This document shows positions 16,716-30,642 of a DNA stretch of 64,000 nucleotides, piece by piece; position 1 is the stretch's first letter; every line of letters starts with the position of its first letter. Made by a program: the position numbers and the translations under genes. The notes under the pieces were generated by a model that worked only from the letters and a program-made list of their open reading frames with translations, did not search any database and was not told where the DNA came from. The DNA comes from Gemmatimonadota bacterium (GTDB lineage Bacteria; Gemmatimonadota; Gemmatimonadetes; Palauibacterales; Palauibacteraceae), in assembly GCA_039586095.1 (NCBI GenBank), contig JBDHLB010000009.1:2160-66159 (forward strand), read 5' to 3'.

Positions 16716-17020
16716 GGGAGGACTCCTTTCACGCTAAACGTTTGCAATAGTGTGACTTCTCTCCATTCTAGAGACTCACGCCTCGCGCCGTAAGTAGCAA
16801 CCAGGCTTGCCGGTCGCGTATTTGGTCGTCGCTCTCACGGGCCTCGAGAGTTGCCCGAAGGCCCTTCACAGCGTAAGACTTTCCGTCATCTGCTCCACCC
16901 GACTTTGCACACGGATGGTTCTGCCTGGCTCTATAGACTGACGGTTCCGATTGACGAGCCGCGCCAGTCGCATGTGCTCGCTCGCACTCTAACAGCGTGG
17001 TACAACCGAGGGGGGCAATC

Positions 17021-18508
17021 ATGGATCGACGTGAGTTTTGTCGTGGGGCCATCGCCGCGGGGATGACAGCTGCGATCCCGGGACTGGCGGCTTGCGACCG
17101 CTGGACGCCGGGTGGCGACCGGGCACAGACGAGCATACGCGGACTCTCTCTCTCGGGCGAGGAGATCGAGCTCGAGCGAGCGGCCATCCAGGAATTCGCC
17201 GACAGCTTGACCGGTCCCGTTCTCCTCTCCGACCACCCGGACTACGACACGGCCCGACGCATCTGGAACGGCATGCACGACAGGCGCCCGGCGTTGATCG
17301 CGCGCTGCATGAACAGCCAGGACGTCAGCAACGCCGTGACTTTCGCGCGCGAGCGCGAGCTGCTTACCTCGGTGCGCGGCGGGGGTCACAGCTGGCCCGG
17401 CAAGTCCGTGGCCGATGACGGGCTGATGATCGATCTGTCGGCGATGAACCAGGTGACAGTGGACGCCGACGCGCAGCGAGCGTCCGCCGGGGGCGGGGCG
17501 CTGCTCGGTCAGCTCGACGCCACGACTCTGGACCAGGGCCTGGTCACGACGGCCGGTGTCGTCTCGCACACGGGGTGCGGCGGACTCACCCTCGGTGGCG
17601 GTTTTGGCCGTCTGAATCGCAGGCACGGCCTGACGATCGACAACGTGGTGGGCGCCGAGCTCGTTACGGCTGACGGCCAGGTTCGCCGGATCAGCGAGGA
17701 GCAGGACGCCGATCTGTTCTGGGCCATTCGGGGCGGCGGCGGGAATTTCGGTGTCGTCACTCAGTTCGAGTACCGGGTGCACCCCTTCGATCGGAACGTC
17801 CTCTCAGGGATGATCGTGTGGCCCATCGAGCAGGCGCGCGAAGTGCTCGACTTCTACGGCGACTGGTACGCCGGTCTGTCTGACGAGCTGTACGTCGGTC
17901 CGATCATTGCGACGCTGCCCGATGGCCAGGGCGTGCTCCTGATGGAGGTCGTATACGCCACAGATCCGTCGGCGGGAGAAAGAGAGCTCGCGCCGCTGCG
18001 GAGCGTGGGCAGCCCGCTGGATGACGGTGTTGTCGTGCAGGATTACACGGTCATGCAGACGAAGGAGGACGAGGCCTTCGGCCATGGCATCCGCTCCTAC
18101 GTGAAGAGCGGCATGGTAAAGGAGATCACGCCGGAGCTGATCGACGCGATGCTCGAGTCGTACGTGCAGGACCCGCGCCTCGCCATGTTCACGCACACTG
18201 CGGGCGGAGCTGTGGCGCGGGTCGACGAGCTCGCGACCGCGTTTCCACAGCGCAATGCCGAGACGATGCTCATCGTCGGAGGCGGGTGGACGGAACCGGC
18301 CGAAGACGAGGAAGCCATCGCAACGGCACGCGAGTGGTACTACCAGCTCGAGCCGTTCATGGGCGGCTACTACGACAACATCGATTTCGACGGGGCAGCA
18401 GGGAACTACGGCCCGGTCTACGAGCGTCTAAGCCAGATCAAGGGTCAGTACGACCCGATGAACCTGTTCCGGCTCAACAACAACGTGCAGCCGGCTGCGG
18501 GGGTCTGA
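17021..18508 (+). CDS. FAD-linked oxidase (PCMH-type FAD-binding + BBE domain), Tat lipoprotein
   Basis: The start MDRREFCRGAIAAGMTAAIPGLAAC combines a twin-arginine signal with a lipobox (LAAC). The FAD-binding motif VRGGGHSWPG and a BBE-type C-terminus (YGPVYERLSQIKGQYDPMNLFRLNNNVQP) are both present. Confidence 0.85.
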   Translation: MDRREFCRGAIAAGMTAAIPGLAACDRWTPGGDRAQTSIRGLSLSGEEIELERAAIQEFADSLTGPVLLSDHPDYDTARRIWNGMHDRRPALIARCMNSQDVSNAVTFARERELLTSVRGGGHSWPGKSVADDGLMIDLSAMNQVTVDADAQRASAGGGALLGQLDATTLDQGLVTTAGVVSHTGCGGLTLGGGFGRLNRRHGLTIDNVVGAELVTADGQVRRISEEQDADLFWAIRGGGGNFGVVTQFEYRVHPFDRNVLSGMIVWPIEQAREVLDFYGDWYAGLSDELYVGPIIATLPDGQGVLLMEVVYATDPSAGERELAPLRSVGSPLDDGVVVQDYTVMQTKEDEAFGHGIRSYVKSGMVKEITPELIDAMLESYVQDPRLAMFTHTAGGAVARVDELATAFPQRNAETMLIVGGGWTEPAEDEEAIATAREWYYQLEPFMGGYYDNIDFDGAAGNYGPVYERLSQIKGQYDPMNLFRLNNNVQPAAGV

Positions 18509-18536
18509 GCGGTCGCGGGTACGCGGCAGGGAATCG

Positions 18537-20849
18537 TCACACGCGCCGAAAGCCAGTACGGGGAAAGCGGCGTGAGCGTGACGGACGGCGGCTGATAAGC
18601 ACGAGCGGCACGTTCGTCTCGCGCGCGATAGCCAGCGGTAGCTCGCCGAGGCCCGCTCGGCCTCGTGCCAGCCGCGCGGACCCCATGACGACCATGTCGG
18701 CCTCGGCGGCGTGGCCGATGATCGACTGACGGCGATCCGAGGTGCAGTCCACGACGATCTCGTAGGGGCCCGCCGCCTCGTCGCGCGCCAGCGCTCGTAT
18801 CTGGCGCTCGGCCTGACCGCGTAGCTCGTCCGATACCGATTCCGGCAGCGTTCGCAGGTACGTCAGCGATCGCTCGCCCGAGCGAGAGAGGCTCGCGAGG
18901 AGACGAGCCCGCAGGTGGCTGTGATCGCGCCGGCCGCCAATCGGGACCAGGATCTTCCGAGCCTCGGACATGTGCCAGCGATGCGGTGCGCGCAGGATGA
19001 CCACGTCGGTGTCCAGCTCTGCCAGCAGGCCCTCGAGCCGAGCCTCGGTGTCGGGCGCGTTCAAGTCCGGTAGCCCCACCAGCACGGTCTCGCAACCGTG
19101 TCCGTCCGCCACCCGGGCGATCTCGCGCCATACGTCCGGCGCGATGGTGAACAGCGTCTCGGCGACCAGAGAGTGCTCGAGGCTGCGCTGCAGCGACTCG
19201 CCGAGCACGCCCTGCGCGTTCTGGAGAGCGGGATGTCGCTCGGCCAGATCGTCCAGTCCTGCCACCTCGGTTTGTATCTCGGATGGTGTTTCTACGCGTG
19301 CGCCCGGTACTGGTGCGGGCTCGGACGGCGTATGTACAACAGACAGGAGCAGCACGCGGCCCGTGCCGGGTGTCCGAAGCGTGACCGCCACATCGACGAG
19401 GCTCGCCGCGCTGGCCGGATTGGCGATCGGCACCAGTACCAGCGGGCTTCTGCCCCGCAGACGAGCCAGGTCAGGATCGCGCGCCTGGGCCGAAGCATCC
19501 GCCAGTCGGGCCCCGGGTGCGAACAGCGTCCAGTACAGAATCCCGCCCACGCCCAGCCACAGCGCGACGACCCAGCCCGCCTCGGGCACGGCAATCGCCT
19601 GGAAGGCCGCCAGACCCAGGCAGAGCAGCGAGCCGGCCACGGGGACGAGCGCGGACCGCCGCTGGCCGGCCTCGGGCTGAGCGGAACGTCGCCGCACGAG
19701 AAGCGCCGCCCAGTGCACGATCGTAAAGGCGATCAGGAAGATGAGACTCGAGGCGGCACCACCCACCGCCACGTTCCCTACGGCGATCGCGATGGCGGCC
19801 ACCATGGCACCCGTGACTGCGACGGCGACCGCGGGAACGCCGCTCGGCCCGTGTGTCTGCCCCATGCGGCGCGGCAGCGAACGGTCGCGGGCCATGGCGA
19901 AACCGACCCGCGAAGCGCCCAGAAGATTCGCACGCAGCGCGGTCACCATCGACAGCACACCCGCCGCGATCACGAGCCAGTAGCCGGCCGGGCCGAGGAA
20001 GCGCTCCGTGGCGTCCGCTACCAACCCTTCCGGGTTGGCCGCAGCGGCCTCCGCGATGCCTCCCTCCCCGGCCCCCACGGTCGCGAGCAGGAAGAGAAGG
20101 GGAAGGTAGATGGCGAGCGCGATCCCCAGAGACAGGTACATGGCTTGCGGCAAGTTGCGCTCCGGATCGCGCACCTCGCCGCCCACCGCCGCGATCAGGT
20201 CGAAGCCCTGGAGCGCGATGAACGTGTAGCCCATCGCCTGGATGACGCCGACCGGACCGGCCACGAGAAAGGGGCTCAACCGGTCCACGAGCTCCGACGG
20301 CGCGCCGCGGATCCACGCCACGAGCCCGGCTCCGATCAGAACAATGAAGACGATGACCTTGCCGACAGTCGCGCCGTTGCCGCCCCCACGGGTTCGTCGC
20401 AACAGGCTCGCCGCATACAACCCGATGGCCGCGACGGCGATGGCCACTCGCAGGTCGGGGCGTCGCAGCCAGTCCGACGAGACCTCGAGGTCCGCAAGCG
20501 CCCTGCCGACGCCTTCGGCGGCGAACGCGGCGAAGCCCAGCGCGTACAGCACTCCGGCCATGATCGAGGCGAACCAAACCACCCAACCCACCACGAAGGC
20601 GATCTCGATCGAGAAGACCTTCTTGGCGTAGGCGTAAATGCCCCCGGACTCGGGGAACCGCTTCGCCAGCTCGGCGAAGCTGGCCACCGTCAGGAAGGCG
20701 ATGCCGCCGTTGAGGGCGAAGGCGACGATGGCGCCGGGCCCGGCCGTCGCGAACGCGACACCCGCCAGGGCGAGGATGCCTCCGCCGACGATGGCACCCA
20801 CCCCGAGCGCGGTTGCCCCGAACAGGCCGATATGCCGGTCGCTCACCAT
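18537..20849 (-). CDS. APC-family permease fused to C-terminal tandem universal-stress-protein (Usp) domains
   Basis: APC core GLFGATALGVGAIVGGGILALAG...FPESGGIYAY. The C-terminus has Usp-like units (SPLVLVPIANP...; KILVPIGGR...ADMVVMGSARLARGRAGLGELPLAIARETNVPLVLISRR). Confidence 0.85.
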   Translation of the reverse strand: MVSDRHIGLFGATALGVGAIVGGGILALAGVAFATAGPGAIVAFALNGGIAFLTVASFAELAKRFPESGGIYAYAKKVFSIEIAFVVGWVVWFASIMAGVLYALGFAAFAAEGVGRALADLEVSSDWLRRPDLRVAIAVAAIGLYAASLLRRTRGGGNGATVGKVIVFIVLIGAGLVAWIRGAPSELVDRLSPFLVAGPVGVIQAMGYTFIALQGFDLIAAVGGEVRDPERNLPQAMYLSLGIALAIYLPLLFLLATVGAGEGGIAEAAAANPEGLVADATERFLGPAGYWLVIAAGVLSMVTALRANLLGASRVGFAMARDRSLPRRMGQTHGPSGVPAVAVAVTGAMVAAIAIAVGNVAVGGAASSLIFLIAFTIVHWAALLVRRRSAQPEAGQRRSALVPVAGSLLCLGLAAFQAIAVPEAGWVVALWLGVGGILYWTLFAPGARLADASAQARDPDLARLRGRSPLVLVPIANPASAASLVDVAVTLRTPGTGRVLLLSVVHTPSEPAPVPGARVETPSEIQTEVAGLDDLAERHPALQNAQGVLGESLQRSLEHSLVAETLFTIAPDVWREIARVADGHGCETVLVGLPDLNAPDTEARLEGLLAELDTDVVILRAPHRWHMSEARKILVPIGGRRDHSHLRARLLASLSRSGERSLTYLRTLPESVSDELRGQAERQIRALARDEAAGPYEIVVDCTSDRRQSIIGHAAEADMVVMGSARLARGRAGLGELPLAIARETNVPLVLISRRPSRSRRFPRTGFRRV

Positions 20850-20856
20850 GGCTTGT

Positions 20857-23136
20857 CTAGCCGAGAATCCTCTTTAGAAGGGATTTGATCGTGCCCTCGT
20901 AGCGCTTGACCAGCATGACGGAGGTTGGCGAGTAGCGGACCACTTTCGCGGCGATCTCGCCCACGAGGAGCGGTCGGAACAGCGGTTCCTTGGCCGCGCC
21001 CAGTACGACGAGATCGAAATCCCTGCCAGCCTTCGCGATCCCGCCCGCGACCGAGCCGGACTCGATGAGCTTCTTGTCGACGGCCACGCCACCGTCGAGC
21101 CGTGCGAGCGTCTTGTCGATCCACAGGTCCGCGTCGTCACGCTGCACCTGGGAAGCCTCGGGCGGCACGACATAGCACGCGGTCACGGTCATCTGCCTCG
21201 CTCTGGCGAGAATGCCGAGGTATTCGGCGGCCAATCTGGCGTGCGGGCCGCCGGCCGTCGGGAGCAGCGCGTTACGGAAACCGCTATCGCCCCTGATCTT
21301 GAGGAGCATGAGATCGCACGGTGCGTGACGGATCACGTGGTCGGCGACCTCACCGAACAGACGGTCCCGCGTGTTCGTGTAGCCCTTCCAGCCCATCAAG
21401 AGCAGATCCGCCCGGAGACGCCGTGCCGCGGAGAGGATGCCGTCATGCACGTGGTGGGCGATCACGACTTCCGTGTCGACATCGACGCCGTGCCGCTTGG
21501 CGCGCTCGTGGGCCAGGCGGAACAGACGATCCTTGTGGTGCAGGTAGCGCAGCCCCTCGTGGACCGGGAGCTGCCTGGGAACGTTCACCACCGCCAGGGC
21601 CACAATGTGTCCCCGGTGCTCACGGGCGATCGGCGCCGCCGTGTCGATCAGAACGTTCACCGTGTCGGGATTCGACAGCGGCACCAGCACGGAATACCCG
21701 CTGCGTATCTCGGCCGGTACGGCTCCCGGAACCAGCACCTGCGGCATCTCGTGCACGGCCTGCTTCTCGGAGTACGCGAAGTAGATGAGCAGTCCGAGCA
21801 CGATCCAGCCGATCGTCACGTACCAGGCGACCGGCTGGAACCGGAACTGATACAGCGCGAGAAACACGTTCAGCCCGAAACCCAGAATCGGTACGAGAGG
21901 ATAGAACGGCACCTTGTACCGACGCTCGATCTGGGGCGCCTTCCGCCGCAGAACAATCACCGAGAGGTTCACGAGGGCGAACGTGAGGAGAAAGATCAGG
22001 CTCGCGGCCGAGCCGACAGTCTCGATCGGCAGGGCAAGCGCCATGCCAAGCAGGATTACCCCGGTGACGATGATCGCCACGCGGGGAGTCCGCCGCTTCC
22101 GGTCGATCTTGGAGATCGGTTCGGGGAGCCAGGCGTCGCGTCCCATCGAAAAGGCGACCCTGGAAGCGGCCATCACGGTCGCGTTGAGTGCGGAGGTGGT
22201 CGACAGCAGGCCTCCGAACACGATGACCGCCACGCCGAAGGCCGGCATGAAATCCTCCGCGGCCCGGACGATCGCCGTCTCCTTGTACCGGCCCAGGAAC
22301 TGCCAGGTCGGAGTGTCACCCGCATCCACGGCGCCGAGCGACACGAACAGGATGAGCAGGTACATCGTGATCGCGATCGCGAGCGCGATGAAGGTCGCCC
22401 TGGGGATGTTCTTCTCGGGCTCCTTGATCTCCTCGGCGACCGTGGCGATGAGGTCGTAGCCCTCGAAGGCGATGAACGTGAGGCCCATCGCGACGAGAAC
22501 TCCACCGGCGCCCAGTGGGAAGAATGGCTGGAAGCTGTCCGCTGCGGCCCCAGGCTCCACCGCCACTCGCTTGAGGCCGTAAAAGATGAAGATCGACAGC
22601 ACGACGAGCTTGGACATCGTCAGGGCGTTCTCGGCGAAGCCGGTTACCTCGGTGCCGCGGGTGTTCAGCCGGACGAACAGGGCACCGACGATAACGGTGA
22701 CGAGTGCCACCGCCCCGCGATCCCCGAGGAGTTCCAGCGCTCCATGCCCGAACTCGGGCAGGTACTTGAGGAAAAACTCCCAGAAGTAGCCGGCGAAGCC
22801 CAGGGCGTAGAGGCTACACGCAACCGTGTAGGCGAACCACAGCATCCAGCCCGCAGTGAATCCCAGGGGTCCCGGAAAGGCCATGCGCACGAAGGAATAG
22901 CCACCGCCCGCTCGGGGGATTGCGGAGGCGAGCTCGGCGTACGCGAACGCGGTCAGCAAGGTCACGGCGCCGTTGAGCGCGAAGGCGAGGATCGACGCAG
23001 GCCCCGCCACGCCCGCGGCGATCCCCGTCAGAACGAAGATGCCTGCTCCGATCATGGCGCCGACACCGATCATCGTGGCGTCGAACAGGCCCAGATCGCG
23101 AGCGAACGTGACTTCCGACTTCTGGCTGTCGGCCAT
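20857..23136 (-). CDS. APC-family permease fused to C-terminal tandem Usp domains (paralog of the downstream gene)
   Basis: APC core GLFDATMIGVGAMIGAGIFVLTG...IPRAGGGYSF. The C-terminus has Usp units (YSVLVPLSNP...ADLLLMGWKG...APCDLMLLK; NALLPTAGGP...FDLVVLGAAKEP...SPTSVMLVKR). Only 7 nt separate it from the next APC-Usp gene. Confidence 0.85.
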   Translation of the reverse strand: MADSQKSEVTFARDLGLFDATMIGVGAMIGAGIFVLTGIAAGVAGPASILAFALNGAVTLLTAFAYAELASAIPRAGGGYSFVRMAFPGPLGFTAGWMLWFAYTVACSLYALGFAGYFWEFFLKYLPEFGHGALELLGDRGAVALVTVIVGALFVRLNTRGTEVTGFAENALTMSKLVVLSIFIFYGLKRVAVEPGAAADSFQPFFPLGAGGVLVAMGLTFIAFEGYDLIATVAEEIKEPEKNIPRATFIALAIAITMYLLILFVSLGAVDAGDTPTWQFLGRYKETAIVRAAEDFMPAFGVAVIVFGGLLSTTSALNATVMAASRVAFSMGRDAWLPEPISKIDRKRRTPRVAIIVTGVILLGMALALPIETVGSAASLIFLLTFALVNLSVIVLRRKAPQIERRYKVPFYPLVPILGFGLNVFLALYQFRFQPVAWYVTIGWIVLGLLIYFAYSEKQAVHEMPQVLVPGAVPAEIRSGYSVLVPLSNPDTVNVLIDTAAPIAREHRGHIVALAVVNVPRQLPVHEGLRYLHHKDRLFRLAHERAKRHGVDVDTEVVIAHHVHDGILSAARRLRADLLLMGWKGYTNTRDRLFGEVADHVIRHAPCDLMLLKIRGDSGFRNALLPTAGGPHARLAAEYLGILARARQMTVTACYVVPPEASQVQRDDADLWIDKTLARLDGGVAVDKKLIESGSVAGGIAKAGRDFDLVVLGAAKEPLFRPLLVGEIAAKVVRYSPTSVMLVKRYEGTIKSLLKRILG

Positions 23137-23291
23137 CCGGTCTACCGACTTCTAACAGCGGAGATCAGCGGTCGTGCATCCGCGCCAAGCTGCGGCGGGA
23201 TAAATGTCCGGCACATGCCGTCAATTGACAACGATAGGCACGCTTCCCTCAGCGCCTAACGCGCCCGAATCAGGCGCGCTCCCGTCTAGTC

Positions 23292-23807
23292 TCAGCCCGA
23301 CACCCTCCGTCGGAACGTCGAGCCCACGAAACGGACGAACACGAAGCCGGTCTGACAGATGTTCCCGATAAGCGCCGTCACGTAGAGGGCCGCGGGGTTC
23401 CCGATCGGGAGGTCCAGGAGCACGATGATGAGACTCGCCTGCTCGATGAACTCGATCGATGTGACGATGATGACGGCCAGTCGGTCGGGCTCGATTTCCT
23501 CTTGAACGGGCCGGTATCCCGAGACGAGCGCCCAGATGATTCCGTACCCGAAGACCAGAAACAGCCCACTGCTCACGCGCCAGGTCGTCTCGGGCTCCAG
23601 TCCGTAGCCCGACAGGCCGACCGGTACGAGCGCGGCGGCGATTCCGGCCACGCTGGACCCGATCACGAGGCGAAGCCGGAGCAGGTCGTGGATCGCCTGC
23701 CCCTGGATGCGCGTCCCCGGCCGGATGACGCTCACCAGCGCCGCGAAGCCGGCGAAGGCGGCGGCGATCTCGGCCAATGCCAGCAGCGTATCCGTGTTGT
23801 CGAGCAT
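23292..23807 (-). CDS. Small integral membrane protein (about 5 TM), third gene of the TPR/TIR operon
   Basis: 171 aa with five hydrophobic helices (LLALAEIAAAFAGFAALVSVI, LVIGSSVAGIAAALVPVGL, SSGLFLVFGYGIIWALVSGY, LAVIIVTSIEFIEQASLIIVLL, AALYVTALIGNICQTGFVFVRFV). The ATG is 6 nt after the TIR gene stop. No family recognised. Confidence 0.65.
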   Translation of the reverse strand: MLDNTDTLLALAEIAAAFAGFAALVSVIRPGTRIQGQAIHDLLRLRLVIGSSVAGIAAALVPVGLSGYGLEPETTWRVSSGLFLVFGYGIIWALVSGYRPVQEEIEPDRLAVIIVTSIEFIEQASLIIVLLDLPIGNPAALYVTALIGNICQTGFVFVRFVGSTFRRRVSG

Positions 23808-23813
23808 GTCTCT

Positions 23814-24848
23814 TCAGTCCCCCTGGCAAGTTTCCGTCTCGACGACGCGTCTTTCTTCGAGCTGACAGACGGCCTCACCGTCGAAACCGCAGGCCACGCC
23901 CGAAGCCGAGGCGGTGCAATCCCAGACTTGTGCTTCCGGACTGGCGGACGTGAGGCGAAACGAAGTCGTCGCCGCAAAGCCGCGACACAGTCGGTCGGCT
24001 TCGCGTCCTGCCCGCTCGAGAGCCACGGCCCGAGCCTCGGCTTCGCCTGCCTGGCGGTCTGTAGACGGGCCGACGTACAGGACGAGCCGCCGTTCGGACG
24101 GCTCCCACACCTCGGTCTGCATCACCTGGCGGGCCGCGATCAGGCTAGCGGCGGCTTCCCGGAACGCGCCTTCAGGGTACGCCTCGACGTGGTCGCGAAG
24201 AGCCTGACAGCTCCCTGGCTCGCGCGACTCCCATGCGAGGCGTTCCGCCTTCGTCGGCCGGCCGCCGAATCCCCAAGCGCCGCAAGCGTCGGAAACAAGG
24301 GGCTGGATTACGGGAATCGCACACAGCTGACTCTGAGCCGCGAAGAGATTGAAACCGAAGACGGCAGCGGTCGTGAGTCCGCTCGCGAGCGCCCCGTAGG
24401 TGATCCTCTGCATCAGCCGCTTTCGGGGCCCTCTGGGGGCGGGCACAACGGTTCCGGCAAGTCTTGCCCGCAGCGTGGCGCAAAGGTCTCGGAAGAAGGC
24501 ATTGCGGCGGCTGCCCCCCCACCGTCTCAGATCGATGGCCTGGATCTCTCCGAAGCCGAGCGGTGGATCCACCTTCTGCAGAAGCACGGGAACGATGATG
24601 CCGCGGGACTTGGCCCACCTCGCCTCCTCGCGCACGAACTCCCCTGCCGGTCCCACGCTGCTCTTCGTCCACAGGACGACGACGCACTTCGCCGTTTCCA
24701 ACGCGGACTCGATCTGTACGTGCCAGTTCTTTCCGCTGGGCAGATCCTCGTGAGACCAGACGCCGAAGCCCTCCGCCTGAAGGGCGCGGATCAACCGAGC
24801 GGCTCGCGCCCGATCGTCCTCTACGTAGGCAACGAAGATGTCGCTCAC
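23814..24848 (-). CDS. TIR-domain protein: N-terminal TIR_2 domain, one TM helix, C-terminal Cys-rich extracytoplasmic domain
   Basis: The TIR_2 pattern sits at the N-terminus: SDIFVAYVEDDRARAARLIRALQAEGFGVW...NWHVQIESALETAKCVVVLWTKSSVGPAGEFVREEARWAKSRGIIVPVLL. The TM helix is ITYGALASGLTTAAVFGFNLFAA. The C-terminal ~190 aa contain 8 Cys. There is no in-frame ATG before the TIR domain, so I use GTG 24848, which forms a GTGA overlap with the upstream gene's stop. The track ORF 23814..25301 runs further 5' inside the TPR gene. Confidence 0.8.
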   Translation of the reverse strand: MSDIFVAYVEDDRARAARLIRALQAEGFGVWSHEDLPSGKNWHVQIESALETAKCVVVLWTKSSVGPAGEFVREEARWAKSRGIIVPVLLQKVDPPLGFGEIQAIDLRRWGGSRRNAFFRDLCATLRARLAGTVVPAPRGPRKRLMQRITYGALASGLTTAAVFGFNLFAAQSQLCAIPVIQPLVSDACGAWGFGGRPTKAERLAWESREPGSCQALRDHVEAYPEGAFREAAASLIAARQVMQTEVWEPSERRLVLYVGPSTDRQAGEAEARAVALERAGREADRLCRGFAATTSFRLTSASPEAQVWDCTASASGVACGFDGEAVCQLEERRVVETETCQGD

Positions 24849-26770
24849 AGGCCCGCTCGCCGCTTCAGGCTGTCTGCTATCCACCGGTCGCGCGGGGTGA
24901 GGATGCCCAGCGCTTCCATCCGCTCCGCCACTTCGACGCCGCCCTCGGCGTATTCCTTCTCTCGCGTGAGCTCGAACATCTTCCCGTAGCTCATCAACAG
25001 GTCCCGCTGCCAGACGGCATTGACCGGATCCAGCTCGACCAGTCGCTCTCTGACCTCCAGCGAGGCGCGGAAGCTCTGCGCGGCGCCCACGCTGTCTTCC
25101 TGAACCACCAGTACAACGCCCAACAAGCTCCAAGTCGTGGCGAGATCTCGCTGCCAGCCTGCGTTTCCCGGGTCCGTCGCCGCCAGCCGCTCCTTGATCT
25201 CCAGCGATGTGCGGAGGTGATCCTCCGAGCCGGTGAAGTCCTCGAGCCACCCGAGTGCATCGGACGCGAGGTCGTGGGTGAGCGAGAGGCCCCACTGCCA
25301 TTGGGCGTTGCTAGGGTCCGTCGCCACCAACCGCTGCCCGATCTCGAGCGCCGCCTGATAACGCTCGAGCGCGCCGGAATAGTCCCCCTCGGCCTTGAGC
25401 GCGTTGCCCACCCGCTCGTGTGCGACCGCCAGGTCCCGCTGCCAGGACGAGTTGGTCGGATCCCTCGCGGCCAACCGTTGACGGATCCTGAGCGCCATGC
25501 GGTAGTTCCTGGCGGCGTCGGTGAAGCTCCGCTGTCTTTGCAGCACATCTCCCATGTCGATGTGGACGAAGGCCAGGTCCCGCTGCCAGATGCGGTTGCT
25601 CGGCTCGGTCGCCAGGAGTCGGCGCATGACCCTGAGCGCGGTCCGATGGGCTTCAAGCGCGCCGGACAGGTCACCCAGGCTCTCGAGCATCTGACCCACC
25701 CTGCCGTGAGAGACCACCAGACCGCGCTGTAAGTCGGCGTTGTCGGGAAACAGCGCGGCCAGGCGTTCTCGTATTTCGAGCGAGGCCTGGTAGCTGGCGA
25801 GCGCGCCCTGAAGGTCTCCCTGGTCCGCGAGGATTTGGCCTATCCGGCCGTGGTCGACCGTGACGTCGTTCAGCCGGCCCAGATCGTCGGAATCCGCCGC
25901 GGCCAGCCGTTCCTGGATCACCAGCGAGGCACGGTACTGCTCGAGCGCGTCATCCAGGTTGCCTTGATCTCGGAGGACGTCGCCGAGCTCGATGAGAGCG
26001 ATCGACCGCTCCCGGTCAGTCGCAGCCGTAGCGGTGGCTCGATCCGCTGCCTGCAGAGCCGCCGGGAGGTCCCCCGCGTCCGTGTAGAGCCGGCTCAACA
26101 CCACCCAGTCCCAGTAGACATCCGGGTCAAGCCCGGTGACTTCTTCGAAACGGGCGATCACTTCCGATGTCGAGAGCTTGAGGCGACTTCGAGCCTCGAG
26201 CGCCAGCATCGCGATCCGACGCCCCTCGACGGCGCTCTCGATGTCCATTCGTCGCCGACGGGCCGCGTCGCGGGCCGCACGCAGGTCGTCCAGCACCGCA
26301 AGTGCCCCGATCTCGTCTCCCGCGTTGAAGCGAGCTAGGGCGGCCGCACCTTCGGGGGTCGACGCGATGTCTTCCACCGCGTCTCTGAACACGGAGATCT
26401 CTTGGGCGTATGCTCGATCCTGCTCGGCCAGAGCGGCGACGAACTCCTCCTCCGCTGCCGTCAGCTCGGTCTGGAGGCGGGTGACGTCTTCGGCCCGGCC
26501 GCTTCGCGCGCTCTCCAGCTGGGCTCGCAGATTCTGGATCTCCTCTGCCTGCTGTCGAATCCGGGTATCCGCCGCGCGTGCAGCAGCGACCTGGGTGGCG
26601 GACGCGGCGTAGAGCGCCGCGGCGACCTCGGCACGCACGTCGACCTGGGCAACCTGGTTGGTGGGAGTCTGCCCCGAGAGCGTGCCTGGGGCGATGCAGA
26701 GCCATGTGACGCCAAGAACCGCGCTTGCGGCCGTCACGAGAGACAGCGGTCCAGGTTTGTTCGAGAGCAT
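24845..26770 (-). CDS. Membrane-anchored coiled-coil + TPR-repeat protein
   Basis: I start it at ATG 26770 (MLSNKPGPLSLVTAASAVLGVTWLCIAPG, a signal peptide or anchor). A coiled-coil segment follows (EEIQNLRAQLESARSGRAEDVTRLQTELTAAEEEF). Seven ~42-aa TPR-like units then recur with the pattern SLEIxERLAAxDPxNAxWQRDL...G. Confidence 0.8.
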   Translation of the reverse strand: MLSNKPGPLSLVTAASAVLGVTWLCIAPGTLSGQTPTNQVAQVDVRAEVAAALYAASATQVAAARAADTRIRQQAEEIQNLRAQLESARSGRAEDVTRLQTELTAAEEEFVAALAEQDRAYAQEISVFRDAVEDIASTPEGAAALARFNAGDEIGALAVLDDLRAARDAARRRRMDIESAVEGRRIAMLALEARSRLKLSTSEVIARFEEVTGLDPDVYWDWVVLSRLYTDAGDLPAALQAADRATATAATDRERSIALIELGDVLRDQGNLDDALEQYRASLVIQERLAAADSDDLGRLNDVTVDHGRIGQILADQGDLQGALASYQASLEIRERLAALFPDNADLQRGLVVSHGRVGQMLESLGDLSGALEAHRTALRVMRRLLATEPSNRIWQRDLAFVHIDMGDVLQRQRSFTDAARNYRMALRIRQRLAARDPTNSSWQRDLAVAHERVGNALKAEGDYSGALERYQAALEIGQRLVATDPSNAQWQWGLSLTHDLASDALGWLEDFTGSEDHLRTSLEIKERLAATDPGNAGWQRDLATTWSLLGVVLVVQEDSVGAAQSFRASLEVRERLVELDPVNAVWQRDLLMSYGKMFELTREKEYAEGGVEVAERMEALGILTPRDRWIADSLKRRAGL

Positions 26771-26896
26771 CTGACGAGTATGCAGGAGTGTCGGCTTACT
26801 CTCAACGTCAACTGGACGTCGGAGTGGTTGTGCATGTACGCTGGTAGACGCCGAATGAGGCCGATTCTTGCACTCCATAACCTGGGGAGGATCAGA

Positions 26897-27424
26897 ATGA
26901 AGCGGACAATCTTGCTCTGGAGCCTGGGCGGTCTACTGGCCCTGGCCGCCTGCGCGCAGCCAGCACCCGAGACGACGGAGACCGAAACGGCTGTCGTACA
27001 GGATACCGAAGCCGCCGAGGCCGCCATACGGGCCCTGGTTGACGAGTTTCTGGCCGGTTTCAACGCGGGCGATGCCGAGAGTCTGGCATCTCAATACGCA
27101 GAGGATGCCGTCCAGATGGCGCCGGACGGACCACCTACCGAGGGACCTGAGGCCATCGTCAGATCCATCGCGGAGTTCATGGCAGGGTACACAGCCACGC
27201 AGACCGCCACGGTCGACGAGGTGAGTGTGCACGGCGACATCGCCTTCGCCAGGGGAAGCTGGAACGTGCGCCAGACCCCTGTAGCGGGTGGAGAGGAAGA
27301 GGTCCGAAACGGCAAGTGGCTCACGATCTGTCAGCAACAGGCCGACGGCTCCTGGCAGGTCTGGCGGTGGATCTGGAACCAGGAAAGCGCGTCGATGGGA
27401 GAGGCGGCCACGGAGTCCATGTAG
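26897..27424 (+). CDS. SnoaL-like / DUF4440 (NTF2-fold) lipoprotein
   Basis: The ATG at 26897 is preceded by GGGGAGG. Signal peptide plus lipobox: MKRTILLWSLGGLLALAAC. NTF2-like pattern: IRALVDEFLAGFNAGDAESLASQYAEDAVQMAP...GKWLTICQQQADGSWQVWRWIWN. Confidence 0.75.
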   Translation: MKRTILLWSLGGLLALAACAQPAPETTETETAVVQDTEAAEAAIRALVDEFLAGFNAGDAESLASQYAEDAVQMAPDGPPTEGPEAIVRSIAEFMAGYTATQTATVDEVSVHGDIAFARGSWNVRQTPVAGGEEEVRNGKWLTICQQQADGSWQVWRWIWNQESASMGEAATESM

Positions 27425-27467
27425 CCGCCCCCGCCGTTCTAACTGTCAGAGAAGGGTCTGACGCGCC

Positions 27468-29318
27468 CTACGGAAAGGACACCGGGGCCTCGCCCGAGCA
27501 CTCGGCCGGGGTCTCGGGCGTCCACCCCGCGTTGCACACCTCGTATGTGAAGGTGCCCGAGACGTCCTTCCCCAGGTTGTCTGTATACGAGCCGGCGTTG
27601 TCCACGCCGAGCGCGATCGTCCCGCCGTTCCGCCACACGTCCACCAGGGGGCCGCCGCCTGTCCAGTCGAGGACGGCGCGCCAGTTCTTCCCCTTCTGAA
27701 CTTTCGTAACCTGGAAGACGCCGAACGGCGCCGGTGGGTCGCCGGTACCGGCCGCTGGCTCACGGTACGGACTGCACGGTGGCGACGCGTAGTCGGTGCC
27801 GTCCTCGAAGGCACCCGTGAGGCCGGTCACACAGAAACTGAAGCTGGTGGCGTTGCGGATCATGCCCGTTGTGAGTTCGACCATGCCGTCGCTGCCGGTC
27901 ACGCCCGACGAGGTGGCGTAGTCGGCACTTCCATCCACCTCCCATGAGCCGTTCACGGTAACGTCCGCGAGCGGATTCCCTCCGTCATCGACAGCTTGCA
28001 CGGTGACGGTGCCGCTGGCCCGCTTGTTCTTGTTCACCTTCACGGTCACGCCGCTGACCCACTGAACCGTCGCCGTCGTGCACGCACCGCCGGCGCACGG
28101 GTCGACCGGTGTGTTTCCGGAGTAGAGCAGCAGATTCGGCGAGCCGGCTCCCGCGTTCGAGACCACGTTCGACGTGGCCGAGCTCTGCATGGCCGCCCAG
28201 ACCTGCGCCGGAGACCAGTTCCGGTTGGCCTCGAGGTGGAGCGCCGCCACGCCCGCCACGTGCGGGGAGGCCATCGACGTCCCGCTCCAAGTGCCCGTTC
28301 CGTCGCCCATCACAGTCGACGTGATCGACGACCCCGGCGCGAAGATGTCGACACACGTGCCGTAGTTGGAGAACGAGCTGCGGGCGTCCGAGCTGGTGGT
28401 CGAGCCGACGGTAACGGCCTCCGGGGCGCTCGCAGGCGACTTGGTGCACGCGTCCCTGTTGTCGTTGCCGGCCGAGACGGCGAACGTCACGCCGGCCGCC
28501 ACGGCGTTGGCAATGGCGGCGTTCACGGATGAGCTGTAACCACCGCCGAGGCTCATGTTCGCCACGGCCGGGCGGGCATGGTTGTCCATCACCCACTCGA
28601 TTCCCGCGATGACGCCCGCATACGAACCGGAGCCGCCGCAACCGAGCACTCTCACGGAGACGATGTTGGCGTCCTTCGCCACCCCATAGTCCTTGCTGCC
28701 CACGGTCCCGGCCACGTGGGTGCCGTGCCCGTGGCAGTCTGACGCGTCGCTGTCGCCGTCGATGAAGTCCCAGCCGCTGGACAGCCGGGTGCCGAACTGG
28801 TCGGTCCGACCGAAGTCGATCCCCGTGTCGAGGATGTAGGCGTGCACGCCGGTCCCATCACCCGGTGGCACGTAGGAGCCGTCCAGCGGCAACGCCCGCT
28901 GATCGATTCGGTCCAGGCCCCACGAGCCAACCGTCGTCTGCACCACACCGTCCTGCTCGACGTAGGCGACGTTCGGGTTGCGCTGGATCGCGTCGATCGC
29001 CTGAGGCGGCAGGTTGCCCGCGAATCCCTTGAGCGCCCGGCTGTATGTGTACTGGATCGTGCCGCCGTGCGCTCCGACCAGGGCGCGCGCCAGACCCGGT
29101 GGATCGACAACGTCGTCCTGGAACACGACGATCCAGTCGTCCGGGCCGACCTCAGCCGTCTGGACTGTCGCCGCGAGCTCCACCGACCCATCCGGCTGAA
29201 GGGAAAGGGGATCGTCCTGACAGCCTGCGAAAGCGACCGCAACAGCCAGAAAGAAACCGCTGGAACGGCGCAAACGAAGCGTGCGATCTATGCGGGGCAC
29301 ATCGGGCAGCTGAGACAT
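27468..29318 (-). CDS. Subtilisin-like serine protease (peptidase S8, proteinase-K-like) lipoprotein with C-terminal extension domains
   Basis: The catalytic triad is present in context: AYILDTGID (Asp), HGTHVAGT (His) and [11 protein letters not shown] (Ser). An N-terminal I9-like propeptide is present ([10 protein letters not shown]...). I start it at ATG 29318, giving MSQLPDV...[12 protein letters not shown] with a lipobox. Confidence 0.9.
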
Positions 29319-29598
29319 GCGTCCTCCAACAGCTCGGGAGCGCTCTCCGGGGGGCAACCTGAAAAGCAACTGACAATAAAGGTGTGTCGCCAGTACCTGT
29401 CGGATATCAAGAGGGAGTGACGGATTCGCTACCTGCGCCAACCGGAGGTATCAGAGAGCTGAAGGCTGGAGCCGGTGGCCCGGCGGGGGTTGCTCGGCAC
29501 GCCTTCGGACAAGAACCTTTCGGCACGCCGCGCATGCCGAGACCAACTGGGGTCAGACTGTTGCGGTCTGTTCACGGCTCGCCCGGAGGTTCGATGAC

Positions 29599-30642
29599 GT
29601 GAGGTCCGCACCCGGGGAACGCCACGCTGCGGAAATGTCGGCGCTGCTCGACATGGGATTCGAGCCCGCCCGGCCCCTGCCGGAACGCATCGAAGACACG
29701 ATCCTGCCGTCCGGCGACCACAAGCTCGTGCTCGATCGGCGGGCCATGAGCACTCGCGTTTCGGTCGCTGCCATCCACGACTCCCGGTGCCTGTTGGAGG
29801 ATGCGGCCGGCCGTGCGTTCGAAAAGATGGACCTCCTGATTGGCCTCCTCGATCGGTTTGACGCCGCTTCAGCGGTGGGCGTGCTCAACGCCGAGGGAAG
29901 ACTCGCGGGTCCGCCGCCGGAGCTGACGCTGCTGCTCGATCGATCGGCCGCGGTCCACAGGGCGAGCGGCGGCGCTTTCGACGTCACGGTCCAGCCGCTC
30001 GTGGATCTGCAGAAGGAAGCCGAGGCGGACCCGGATTCGGTCGCCTGGCGGCATGCGCTCGAGACGGTCGGCGCGGATGCCGTGCAAGTCTCCGCCGCGC
30101 GAATCGCTCTCGAGAGGGACGGGATGGGCATCACGCTCGACGGGATCGCCAAAGGCTACATCGTGGATGCGATGGCCGCGGTGCTCGAAGCGCACGGCAT
30201 CGGCCGCTACCTGATCGACGCGGGAGGAGACATCCGGGCCTCCGGCGTTCGGGAGGACGACCTCCCCTGGCTGATCGCCGTCCGGGATCCCCGGCACGGC
30301 GGGATTTTCCCCTCGCCGCTGCGGATGGCGAAGGGAGCCGTCGCGACCTCCGGCGGCTACGAGGCCCGTCTCGATCCGGACGGATCCTGGCACCCCATCG
30401 TGAACTCCCGCACAGGCCGGTCGCCCGTCGACGTCCTGAGCGTGACCGTCGCGGGTCCCACCGCATTCGCCTCGGATGCGCTCGCCACCGCCGCGCTGCT
30501 GATGTCTCCGCGGCGGGGAGCGCGATTCATCGACGCCATGCCTGGGTTCGAGTGCATGGTAGTCGACGGGGAGGGCGAGAGGACGCTTTCGGCCGGCTGG
30601 CCGGACCACCAACAGCTGCACGAGCAGGAAGGCGTGAGATGA
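29599..30642 (+). CDS. apbE: FAD:protein FMN transferase (ApbE family)
   Basis: ApbE pattern: RRAMSTRVSVAAI...FDVTVQPLVDL...ITLDGIAKGYIVDAMAAVL...IDAGGDIRASG...AVATSGGYE. The start is uncertain (GTG 29599 or ATG 29635), and I see no obvious signal peptide. Confidence 0.8.
   Translation: MRSAPGERHAAEMSALLDMGFEPARPLPERIEDTILPSGDHKLVLDRRAMSTRVSVAAIHDSRCLLEDAAGRAFEKMDLLIGLLDRFDAASAVGVLNAEGRLAGPPPELTLLLDRSAAVHRASGGAFDVTVQPLVDLQKEAEADPDSVAWRHALETVGADAVQVSAARIALERDGMGITLDGIAKGYIVDAMAAVLEAHGIGRYLIDAGGDIRASGVREDDLPWLIAVRDPRHGGIFPSPLRMAKGAVATSGGYEARLDPDGSWHPIVNSRTGRSPVDVLSVTVAGPTAFASDALATAALLMSPRRGARFIDAMPGFECMVVDGEGERTLSAGWPDHQQLHEQEGVR

Follow-up and report, generated by a model that had tools for sequence, protein, structure and literature searches.

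A widespread two-gene cassette pairing a predicted membrane-anchored TIR protein with a predicted exported TPR partner, a candidate outside-in receptor of diderm bacteria

Two genes in a stretch of Gemmatimonadota DNA (64,000 nucleotides (nt) of contig JBDHLB010000009.1, assembly GCA_039586095.1; hereafter the window) make up a conserved, widespread and translationally coupled cassette that had previously gone unnamed. The first, g1 (24845-26770, minus strand), is an open reading frame (ORF) of 641 amino acids (aa) read from the ATG at 26770 and encodes a predicted exported TPR protein, hereafter the partner. The second, g2 (23814-24848, minus strand), is an ORF of 344 aa with a GTG start, encoding what is predicted to be a single-pass membrane protein in which a TIR domain precedes a transmembrane helix and a Cys-rich ectodomain. 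We propose, with moderate confidence, that the two products may form an outside-in transmembrane receptor whose cytoplasmic output, a NADase or protease, is switched on by sensing in the periplasm. The cassette is classified among TIR-based conflict or signalling systems, and its sensing side is the unusual part. To our knowledge, those TIR systems of bacteria that have been characterised to date detect infection within the cytoplasm. If our proposal is true, a conserved TIR family with periplasmic sensing would be different in kind from these systems and would exhibit in bacteria the outside-in TIR signalling whose layout defines the animal Toll-like and interleukin-1 (IL-1) receptors. The cassette family spans hundreds of species, including the cultured Nitrosospira briensis and Hyphobacterium. 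In N. briensis Nsp8 it lies within bases 16988-30159 of NZ_FOVJ01000012.1, and in Hyphobacterium sp. SN044 within bases 220889-235899 of NZ_JAKKUV010000003.1.

An earlier reading made from the sequence alone (the sequence-only reading) had pointed to three tightly packed minus-strand genes, of which g1 and g2 are the first two, and this packing is read directly in the sequence: all three genes run in the same direction, the g1 stop codon (TGA, 24845-24847) and the g2 start codon (GTG, 24846-24848) have the tetranucleotide GTGA in common (24845-24848, minus strand), and 6 nt separate the TGA of g2 from the ATG of the third gene, g3. The GTGA overlap implies that g1 and g2 are translationally coupled. 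A 4-nt NTGA stop/start overlap recurs in 31 homologous loci from many phyla, which puts the g1-g2 arrangement beyond chance. In 50 of 65 loci with a full gene of the g2 type (TIR, transmembrane helix and Cys-rich domain), the conserved N-terminal domain of the partner adjoins the TIR gene on the same strand; among the remaining 15, the DNA upstream is shorter than 2.2 kb in eight, and three carry a divergent partner. When the ORFs of 80 loci were clustered all against all, only two recurrent families emerged, the TIR protein (60 loci) and the partner (54 loci). A third conserved gene was considered and rejected, since the third-largest ORF cluster overlaps the TIR gene in antisense and was judged an artefact. 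Conserved adjacency together with the NTGA overlap points to translational coupling and suggests that the two proteins are probably partners in a stoichiometric complex. The window carries the full set of features by which we recognise the cassette, namely an exported partner with the conserved N-domain and, next to it on the same strand, a TIR protein with a transmembrane helix and eight Cys, typically joined by the NTGA overlap.

The cassette is not confined to the Gemmatimonadota. Full-length homologues of g2, of ~344 aa, fall into more than 120 clusters at 47-74% identity, with Nitrospira, Caulobacteraceae, Dongiaceae and betaproteobacteria among the named sources, and a scan of one genome per species recovered relatives of the TIR protein in 263 species genomes from many diderm phyla. 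Best among the loci were those of Gemmatimonadota (73-74% identity), Acidobacteriota, Nitrospira, the ammonia oxidisers Nitrosospira and Nitrosomonas, Burkholderiales, Caulobacterales, Hyphomonadaceae, Steroidobacteraceae, Sphingomonadales and Rhodothermales. A Chloroflexi metagenome-assembled genome holds one degenerate copy of the TIR protein. Some genomes hold two copies of the cassette (L051/L065 on contig CAVPBP010000006.1, L025, L027/L052 and L046/L062), some of them separated by ~20 kb or oppositely oriented within one locus. One homologue, P0016 (516 aa), is called as the last repeats and tail of the partner fused to the TIR protein, which probably reflects a frameshift at the NTGA junction or an artefact of gene calling there.

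The assignment of the g2 N-terminus to the TIR_2 family, already made in the sequence-only reading, is borne out by Pfam (PF13676; residues 4-122; 24483-24839, minus strand), with an E-value of 2.8e-20 and 73.5 bits against a gathering cutoff of 28, over positions 1-121 of the 122 in the model. The AlphaFold2 (AF2) model of full g2 has a mean predicted local distance difference test (pLDDT) score of 84; searched with Foldseek, it matched the TIR domains of AbTir, SARM1, BtpA, PdTIR and SPARTA, and the full-length search gave TIR matches only. A profile search of the PDB with the g2 TIR domain matched BtTir, AbTir and PdTIR, in an alignment that covers only the N-terminal half of the domain (beta-A to beta-C) and ends before residue Glu75; a single-sequence search of the PDB with the same domain was empty. 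Glu75 (codon at 24624-24626, minus strand; motif F71-V-R-E-E75-A) is a candidate catalytic residue on the strength of its motif, its position and its invariance. It is present in 40 of 40 aligned homologues in the context F-V-R-[DE]-E-A, and a helix of the model starts at residue 74, placing Glu75 at the start of helix alpha-C. The BB-loop Gly and its surrounding motif are likewise invariant across phyla in all 40 sequences. By motif, then, g2 shows the hallmark of NADase TIR domains, a [W/F]xxxE sequence whose Glu opens alpha-C, and on this ground we take Glu75 to correspond to the catalytic Glu of AbTir and SARM1. The sequence-only reading had seen a Glu at the position used by bacterial TIR NADases, and the alignment gave no sign that it is missing in the family.

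Downstream of the TIR domain, residues 153-171 (24336-24392, minus strand) are the sole hydrophobic 19-mer of g2 by hydropathy and form its predicted transmembrane helix, preceded by the R/K-rich stretch RGPRKRLMQR. In proteins of the g2 type, the 15 residues before the helix contain on average 4.2 Lys or Arg, and those after it 0.96. Because the basic residues precede the helix, and because the TIR domain starts as early as residue 4 and has no signal peptide ahead of it, g2 is predicted to be a single-pass inner-membrane protein with its TIR domain in the cytoplasm and its Cys-rich domain in the periplasm. Eight Cys of g2 (positions 176, 189, 214, 288, 311, 320, 328 and 341) lie after the helix, in the ectodomain (residues 173-344; 23817-24332, minus strand), and all eight are invariant in the 40-sequence homologue alignment; the earlier picture of one membrane helix followed by an eight-Cys domain is therefore retained. 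They probably form four disulfides. Modelled alone, the ectodomain reaches a pLDDT of 92.4 and is made of four short helices and, after them, a beta-alpha-beta-beta unit whose strands are 18-25 residues long. Neither the PDB (best E 0.056, TM-score 0.2 or lower) nor the viral models of BFVD (best E 0.019) yielded a significant match to this fold, so that this confidently modelled fold has no relative among solved structures or viral models. An exhaustive search assembled 396 representatives of the ectodomain family, most of which are TIR fusions of ~340 aa. One of them, P0160 (1768 aa), a single representative with an unverified gene model, is a large multi-transmembrane protein that carries Peptidase_M23 and OmpA-like domains and, after these and at its end, the C-terminal ~140 residues of the Cys-rich domain with 6 of its 8 Cys; since Peptidase_M23 and OmpA domains are periplasmic and peptidoglycan-associated, it supports a periplasmic location of the Cys-rich domain.

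The partner appears to be built for the same compartment. By hydropathy g1 has one N-terminal hydrophobic segment (residues 9-27), and hydropathy and orthologue N-termini together indicate a predicted Sec signal peptide or N-terminal anchor over approximately residues 1-33 (26672-26770, minus strand). In each of the 17 partner orthologues inspected at the N-terminus, a basic n-region and a hydrophobic h-region lead to an AxA-type site a few residues ahead of a conserved VD..AEVAAALYAA motif. These are signal sequences of the classic Sec type, and export of the partner to the periplasm is accordingly predicted, in keeping with the extracytoplasmic TPR part envisaged in the sequence-only reading. 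A conserved helical N-domain follows (approximately residues 41-214, ~175 aa; 26129-26650, minus strand), recognised by its identity to orthologues: it is 69-71% identical to those of other Gemmatimonadota, compared with only 43-57% for the repeats and 65-77% for the TIR and Cys domains of g2, and in tblastn it finds matches of 30-66% identity in other phyla. No Pfam model matched the N-domain, and a family search with it alone turned up only proteins in which TPR repeats follow it, none of them informatively named.

Beyond the N-domain, seven TPR-like repeats of 48 residues occupy residues 263-598 (24977-25984, minus strand). Several tandem TPR models matched above threshold in Pfam (TPR_12, 6e-23, 81 bits; TPR_10, 2.5e-21, 75 bits; TPR_2, 74 bits; TPR_1, 70 bits), which places g1 among the TPR proteins, and a BLOSUM autocorrelation of g1 peaked at lags of 48 (1.54) and 96 (1.38). 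The seven units counted in the sequence-only reading thus align in register, but with a period of 48 aa, unusual for TPR, in place of the ~42 aa first estimated. Most repeats have the motif D-P-x-N-x-x-W-Q-R-D-L; the W-Q-R-D-L said to be common to all seven is exact in four units and reads W-Q-W-G-L in one. Tandem repeats at the DNA level were not found in g1, and Pfam detected no enzymatic domain in it. Across the family the partner runs from signal peptide and N-domain through an array of 48-aa TPR units, numbering from a single one to well over a dozen, to a conserved C-terminal tail, with total lengths from 333 to 1051 aa; comparison of these sequences identifies the N-domain and tail as the constant parts and the TPR array as the part that varies in sequence and copy number. 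Two Nitrospira loci have an identical TIR protein and partners of 370 and 418 aa (L003:4892-6004 and L004:3502-4758), a difference of exactly one 48-aa unit, which is either a repeat-number polymorphism or a (short-read) assembly artefact. In some loci two or three paralogous partner genes surround one TIR gene, and in one Nitrospira locus such paralogues are only 24% identical outside the N-domain.

Relatives of g2 indicate that the ectodomain can be joined to other outputs. The same transmembrane and 8-Cys module stands behind CHAT (P0197, P0244), EAD1 (P0151), PIN plus TIR (P0142) and N-terminal domains that matched nothing; among the alternative cytoplasmic domains scanned there was no match to a kinase, cyclase or DNA-binding family, and three gave no identification. 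The only CHAT locus with an adequately long contig (L091) has, ahead of the CHAT gene, a partner homologue of 729 aa. It begins with a signal peptide, shares the N-domain, 48-aa repeats and tail of the partner family, and aligns with g1 over 601 aa at 34% identity (E 4e-75); the contigs of P0197 (CHAT) and P0151 (EAD1) are too short for their context to be judged. By sequence comparison, the core made up of ectodomain and partner stays constant and the cytoplasmic domain can be exchanged, so that the swap of TIR, CHAT and EAD1 on one sensor amounts to a natural experiment in effector modularity. In P0151 (L092:2581-3927), an 80-aa stretch of the EAD1 protein resembles the putative coiled-coil region 'FR..VEDIAST..GA.ALA' of the partner (pairwise E 2e-6) and may be a portable oligomerisation element. 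In addition, a sister TIR clade combines in one chain of ~640 aa a TIR domain, a transmembrane helix, a periplasmic module and TPR repeats, in that order. It was found in ten alphaproteobacterial loci (L073-L077, L080-L082, L084 and L086; for example L077:734-2662 of Polymorphobacter arshaanensis DJ1R-1); its TIR domain is 45-53% identical, with the motifs PLGFGEIQA and FVRDEA in common, and its periplasmic module is conserved as 'SIAVLPFANLSGD..QAYFSDG'. Much in the manner of a Rosetta-stone fusion, these single-chain proteins, together with the other relatives, tie a membrane-anchored cytoplasmic TIR domain to periplasmic TPR sensing.

How such a receptor would work can be sketched as follows. 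The partner would dock on the ectodomain through its constant parts, leaving the variable TPR array to sense a periplasmic cue, which might be damage to the envelope, a ligand derived from peptidoglycan, or a component of a phage or predator. Such sensing would alter the oligomeric state of the receptor and bring TIR domains together, switching on an NAD+-cleaving site (NAD+, nicotinamide adenine dinucleotide) centred on Glu75; NAD+ would then be depleted, or a signal of the ADP-ribose (ADPR) type made, leading to growth arrest or cell death. In the sister systems the same ectodomain would drive a CHAT protease or an EAD1 adaptor in place of TIR. The partner could act within the receptor as either a co-activator or an inhibitor, and the whole could serve anti-phage defence or some other response to conflict or stress. 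More tentatively, and as something possible rather than probable, the secreted, rapidly varying TPR co-receptor and the disulfide-rich ectodomain, whose fold has no described counterpart, may detect an invader or envelope damage in the periplasm and switch on a TIR NADase by clustering, or in sister systems a CHAT protease. This would amount to Toll-like-receptor logic in prokaryotes, and no outside-in family of transmembrane TIR immune receptors would have been described in bacteria before it. The two-gene cassette would in any case provide a defined setting in which to examine how events at an ectodomain control TIR enzyme activity.

Several observations weigh against the receptor proposal. 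Two loci, L045 and L048, have the TIR protein without a partner. PADLOC returned only weak generic TIR or TPR matches for g1-g3 (E ~1e-5), and full-length g2 homologues were absent from plasmid and phage records. The 134 ORFs flanking cassettes elsewhere, scanned with Pfam and PADLOC, are mostly housekeeping genes, with only 3 integrases, 2 PIN, 2 TPR-S and 1 Cas1, and beside the cassette in the window lie genes for transporters, a protease and ApbE; the enrichment near defence islands that the sequence-only reading had thought worth looking for therefore left no clear signal. The equivalence of the candidate Glu75 to a catalytic residue derives from motif and helix position, not from a residue-level structural alignment. 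Finally, the partner-like stretch of P0151 precedes the transmembrane helix and so would face the cytoplasm, an imperfect fit to the model. Part of this evidence would suit the same two-gene receptor in a different role, reporting on nutrient, redox or cell-wall status to control dormancy or NAD+ metabolism. The housekeeping flanks and the purely chromosomal location of the module agree with such envelope or environmental physiology, as does the fact that its hosts are free-living bacteria of soil, water and wastewater, and TIR would be one of several outputs of a generic periplasmic sensor. We nevertheless think a physiological role fairly unlikely: the alternative outputs that could be identified, CHAT and EAD1, are typical of cell-death and conflict systems, the distribution is patchy with ~50% identity across phyla, partners occur as paralogues and vary in repeat copy number, and some loci lie beside integrases and VapB, CHAT/TPR-S and caspase genes, patatin or helicases. 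A purely structural role, against which the sequence-only reading had itself cautioned, is very unlikely in our view. Here TIR and TPR parts would only assemble proteins at the envelope, with no NADase activity, and both the abundance of TIR_2 and TPR in GC-rich soil bacteria and the restriction of similarity with solved NADase TIRs to half of the domain in the profile alignment could be cited in its favour. The invariance of the catalytic-position Glu and of the BB-loop motif across phyla argues otherwise, as do the presence of the active NADases AbTir and SARM1 among the best structural matches and the replacement of TIR by an enzymatic CHAT protease.

Two further explanations would add an effector to the pair. 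The sequence-only reading took the trio as a functional unit, with the five-transmembrane product of g3 as a membrane effector activated by TIR, and we now regard such a three-gene system as highly improbable. It is true that the genes are co-directional and, as far as g2 and g3 are concerned, nearly contiguous, that no terminator-like site was found on the minus strand from g1 to the end of g3, and that small multi-transmembrane effectors are known in Thoeris, CBASS and Pycsar; g3 itself (ORF of 171 aa; 23292-23807, minus strand) has five hydrophobic segments by hydropathy and no match in Pfam, which accords with the earlier description of five membrane segments and no soluble domain. Yet tblastn detected no g3 homologue in any of 86 TIR-protein loci, including the closest Gemmatimonadota loci L007 and L008, which are 73-74% identical to g2, so that the trio is not syntenic, the outcome that the sequence-only reading had named as refuting it. 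There is no doubt that g3 is a gene: its family, with 543 homologues at 63-83% identity, comes from Gemmatimonadota wherever a source is named, and in three other genomes (L087, L088 and L089) its members come straight after a gene for a cytochrome c', a MerR/B12-binding regulator or AttH, with no TIR or TPR gene nearby. With members beginning 1-31 nt after these differing same-strand genes (here, the TIR gene), the family gives the impression of a gene that attaches itself promiscuously to the ends of unrelated operons. Being absent from the 86 loci and elsewhere found behind unrelated genes, g3 is an incidental neighbour and is not part of the conserved module; lying next to g1-g2, it may be co-transcribed with them. 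Another effector, encoded elsewhere or only in some lineages, could respond to a messenger of the cyclic ADPR type made by the membrane TIR protein, much as in Thoeris. Five Caulobacteraceae-type loci carry beside the cassette a divergently oriented membrane protein of 620-730 aa (L006:1294-3192, minus strand; L065:2026-3891; L025:905-3103; L028:2443-4359; L031:969-2849) with DUF4231 matches in all five (best E 1.2e-5) and weak SLATT_3 and YAcAr SLOG matches in three each, a combination that resembles nucleotide-sensing pore-forming effectors, and these proteins may be such effectors. We consider a Thoeris-like scheme distinctly unlikely, however, given that this candidate occurs in only 5 of ~60 loci, all from related taxa, and that its domain scores are sub-threshold: the SLATT_3 and YAcAr matches fall far below Pfam thresholds and DUF4231 reached 20.7 bits, against a cutoff of 24.7, in the one member scored. 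A profile search of the PDB found no relative of the protein, the other loci have no conserved effector gene, and PADLOC gave no match to a ThsB model.

The cassette conforms to none of the known systems with which we compared it. A known defence system was considered and rejected, as PADLOC named none and gave only the weak matches mentioned above, and NCBIfam returned nothing meaningful for g1-g3; this upholds the earlier impression that no known architecture is matched. The cassette resembles Thoeris (types I-XI) in having a TIR domain with a conserved catalytic-position Glu in a small operon and, near a few cassettes, a SLOG/SLATT-like membrane protein, transmembrane and SLATT effectors being known in Thoeris. 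It differs in that its TIR domain is membrane-anchored with a periplasmic domain and its conserved partner is an exported TPR protein, whereas Thoeris is defined by a ThsB-type TIR protein next to a conserved effector gene of the SIR2-SLOG, Macro-TM, caspase-like, SLATT or another kind, an arrangement that g1-g2 does not have; ThsA and ThsB models went unmatched in PADLOC and a defence-island signal is likewise missing. The absence of a ThsA-like partner, noted from the sequence alone, extends to the homologous loci, where only the TIR and partner families recur, bar the weak SLOG/SLATT-like neighbour of five loci. The central P-loop NTPase of Avs, STAND and NLR-like systems is also missing, as had been read from the sequence: no NACHT, NB-ARC or STAND NTPase was detected in g1, g2 or g3 by Pfam, NCBIfam or PADLOC. 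The adjacent CD-NTase or cyclase that marks CBASS and Pycsar effectors was not seen either, neither CD-NTases nor pyrimidine cyclases being among the most frequent families of the 134 flanking ORFs or among the scanned genes of the window.

Comparison with envelope-associated systems shows likenesses of layout or concept. In common with Toll/Toll-like receptors (TLRs) and the IL-1 receptor, g2 would be a single-pass protein with a cytoplasmic TIR domain and a disulfide-rich extracytoplasmic sensing part, a solenoid-repeat element is involved (on the same chain in the sister clade), and activation by clustering would be expected. Unlike in TLRs, the order is inverted, with TIR at the N-terminus (type II); the repeats, TPR rather than leucine-rich (LRR) or Ig, usually belong to a second, secreted protein; and the TIR domain is probably an enzyme, not an adaptor platform. 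The TLR architecture of N-terminal LRR, transmembrane helix and C-terminal TIR is not that of g2, which has no LRR. Only the TIR fold is common to both and no other homology was found, so that the likeness is one of layout only. In Zorya (ZorAB) and Kiwa, envelope sensing is signalled to a cytoplasmic effector, Zorya being a motor-like 5:2 complex; the resemblance would be in the envelope-sensing concept only, the proteins being unrelated and not known to have a TIR, TPR or Cys-rich ectodomain. As presented in its abstract, the BcTir/BcTpr operon of Bacillus cereus is a two-gene pairing of a TIR with a TPR protein, reported to protect against phage (bioRxiv 10.1101/2023.05.26.542521); BcTpr is there described as carrying a NADase/glycosidase domain at its N-terminus, in contrast to g1, which has a signal peptide and no enzymatic domain, and that abstract mentions neither secretion, a transmembrane helix nor a Cys-rich ectodomain. 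Conflict systems with swappable TIR, caspase-like peptidase and EAD domains have been described (Kaur et al., eLife 2020 and 2021). The output kinds of those systems are the same (TIR, CHAT as a caspase-like peptidase, and EAD1) and TPR arrays again form the variable part, but the systems are built on cytoplasmic NTPases (STAND, vWA-MoxR, GTPases), which g1-g3 lack; term searches of both papers for a TIR-transmembrane-Cys-rich protein with an exported TPR partner gave no match. Term searches of the wider literature likewise returned no description of this architecture.

Base composition is uniform at ~65% GC. A sigma-70-like promoter consensus match (26777-26805, minus strand; 9 of 12 positions) lies just upstream of the ATG at 26770, and with two such sites in the region where 0.5 would be expected, it constitutes weak evidence for a promoter. 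In Nitrospira, a CHAT plus TPR-S protein (L003:836-3856) and a caspase (Peptidase_C14; L003:1-717) are encoded just upstream of the cassette and may represent a local cluster of cell-death-type genes. Neighbouring genes in the window encode a SnoaL lipoprotein, a subtilisin, ApbE, a nucleoside symporter and two amino-acid permease-universal stress protein (Usp) fusions. The latter are tandem paralogues (18537-20849 and 20857-23136, both minus strand) set 8 nt apart, each combining amino-acid permease and Usp domains, and the pair lies immediately downstream of g3.

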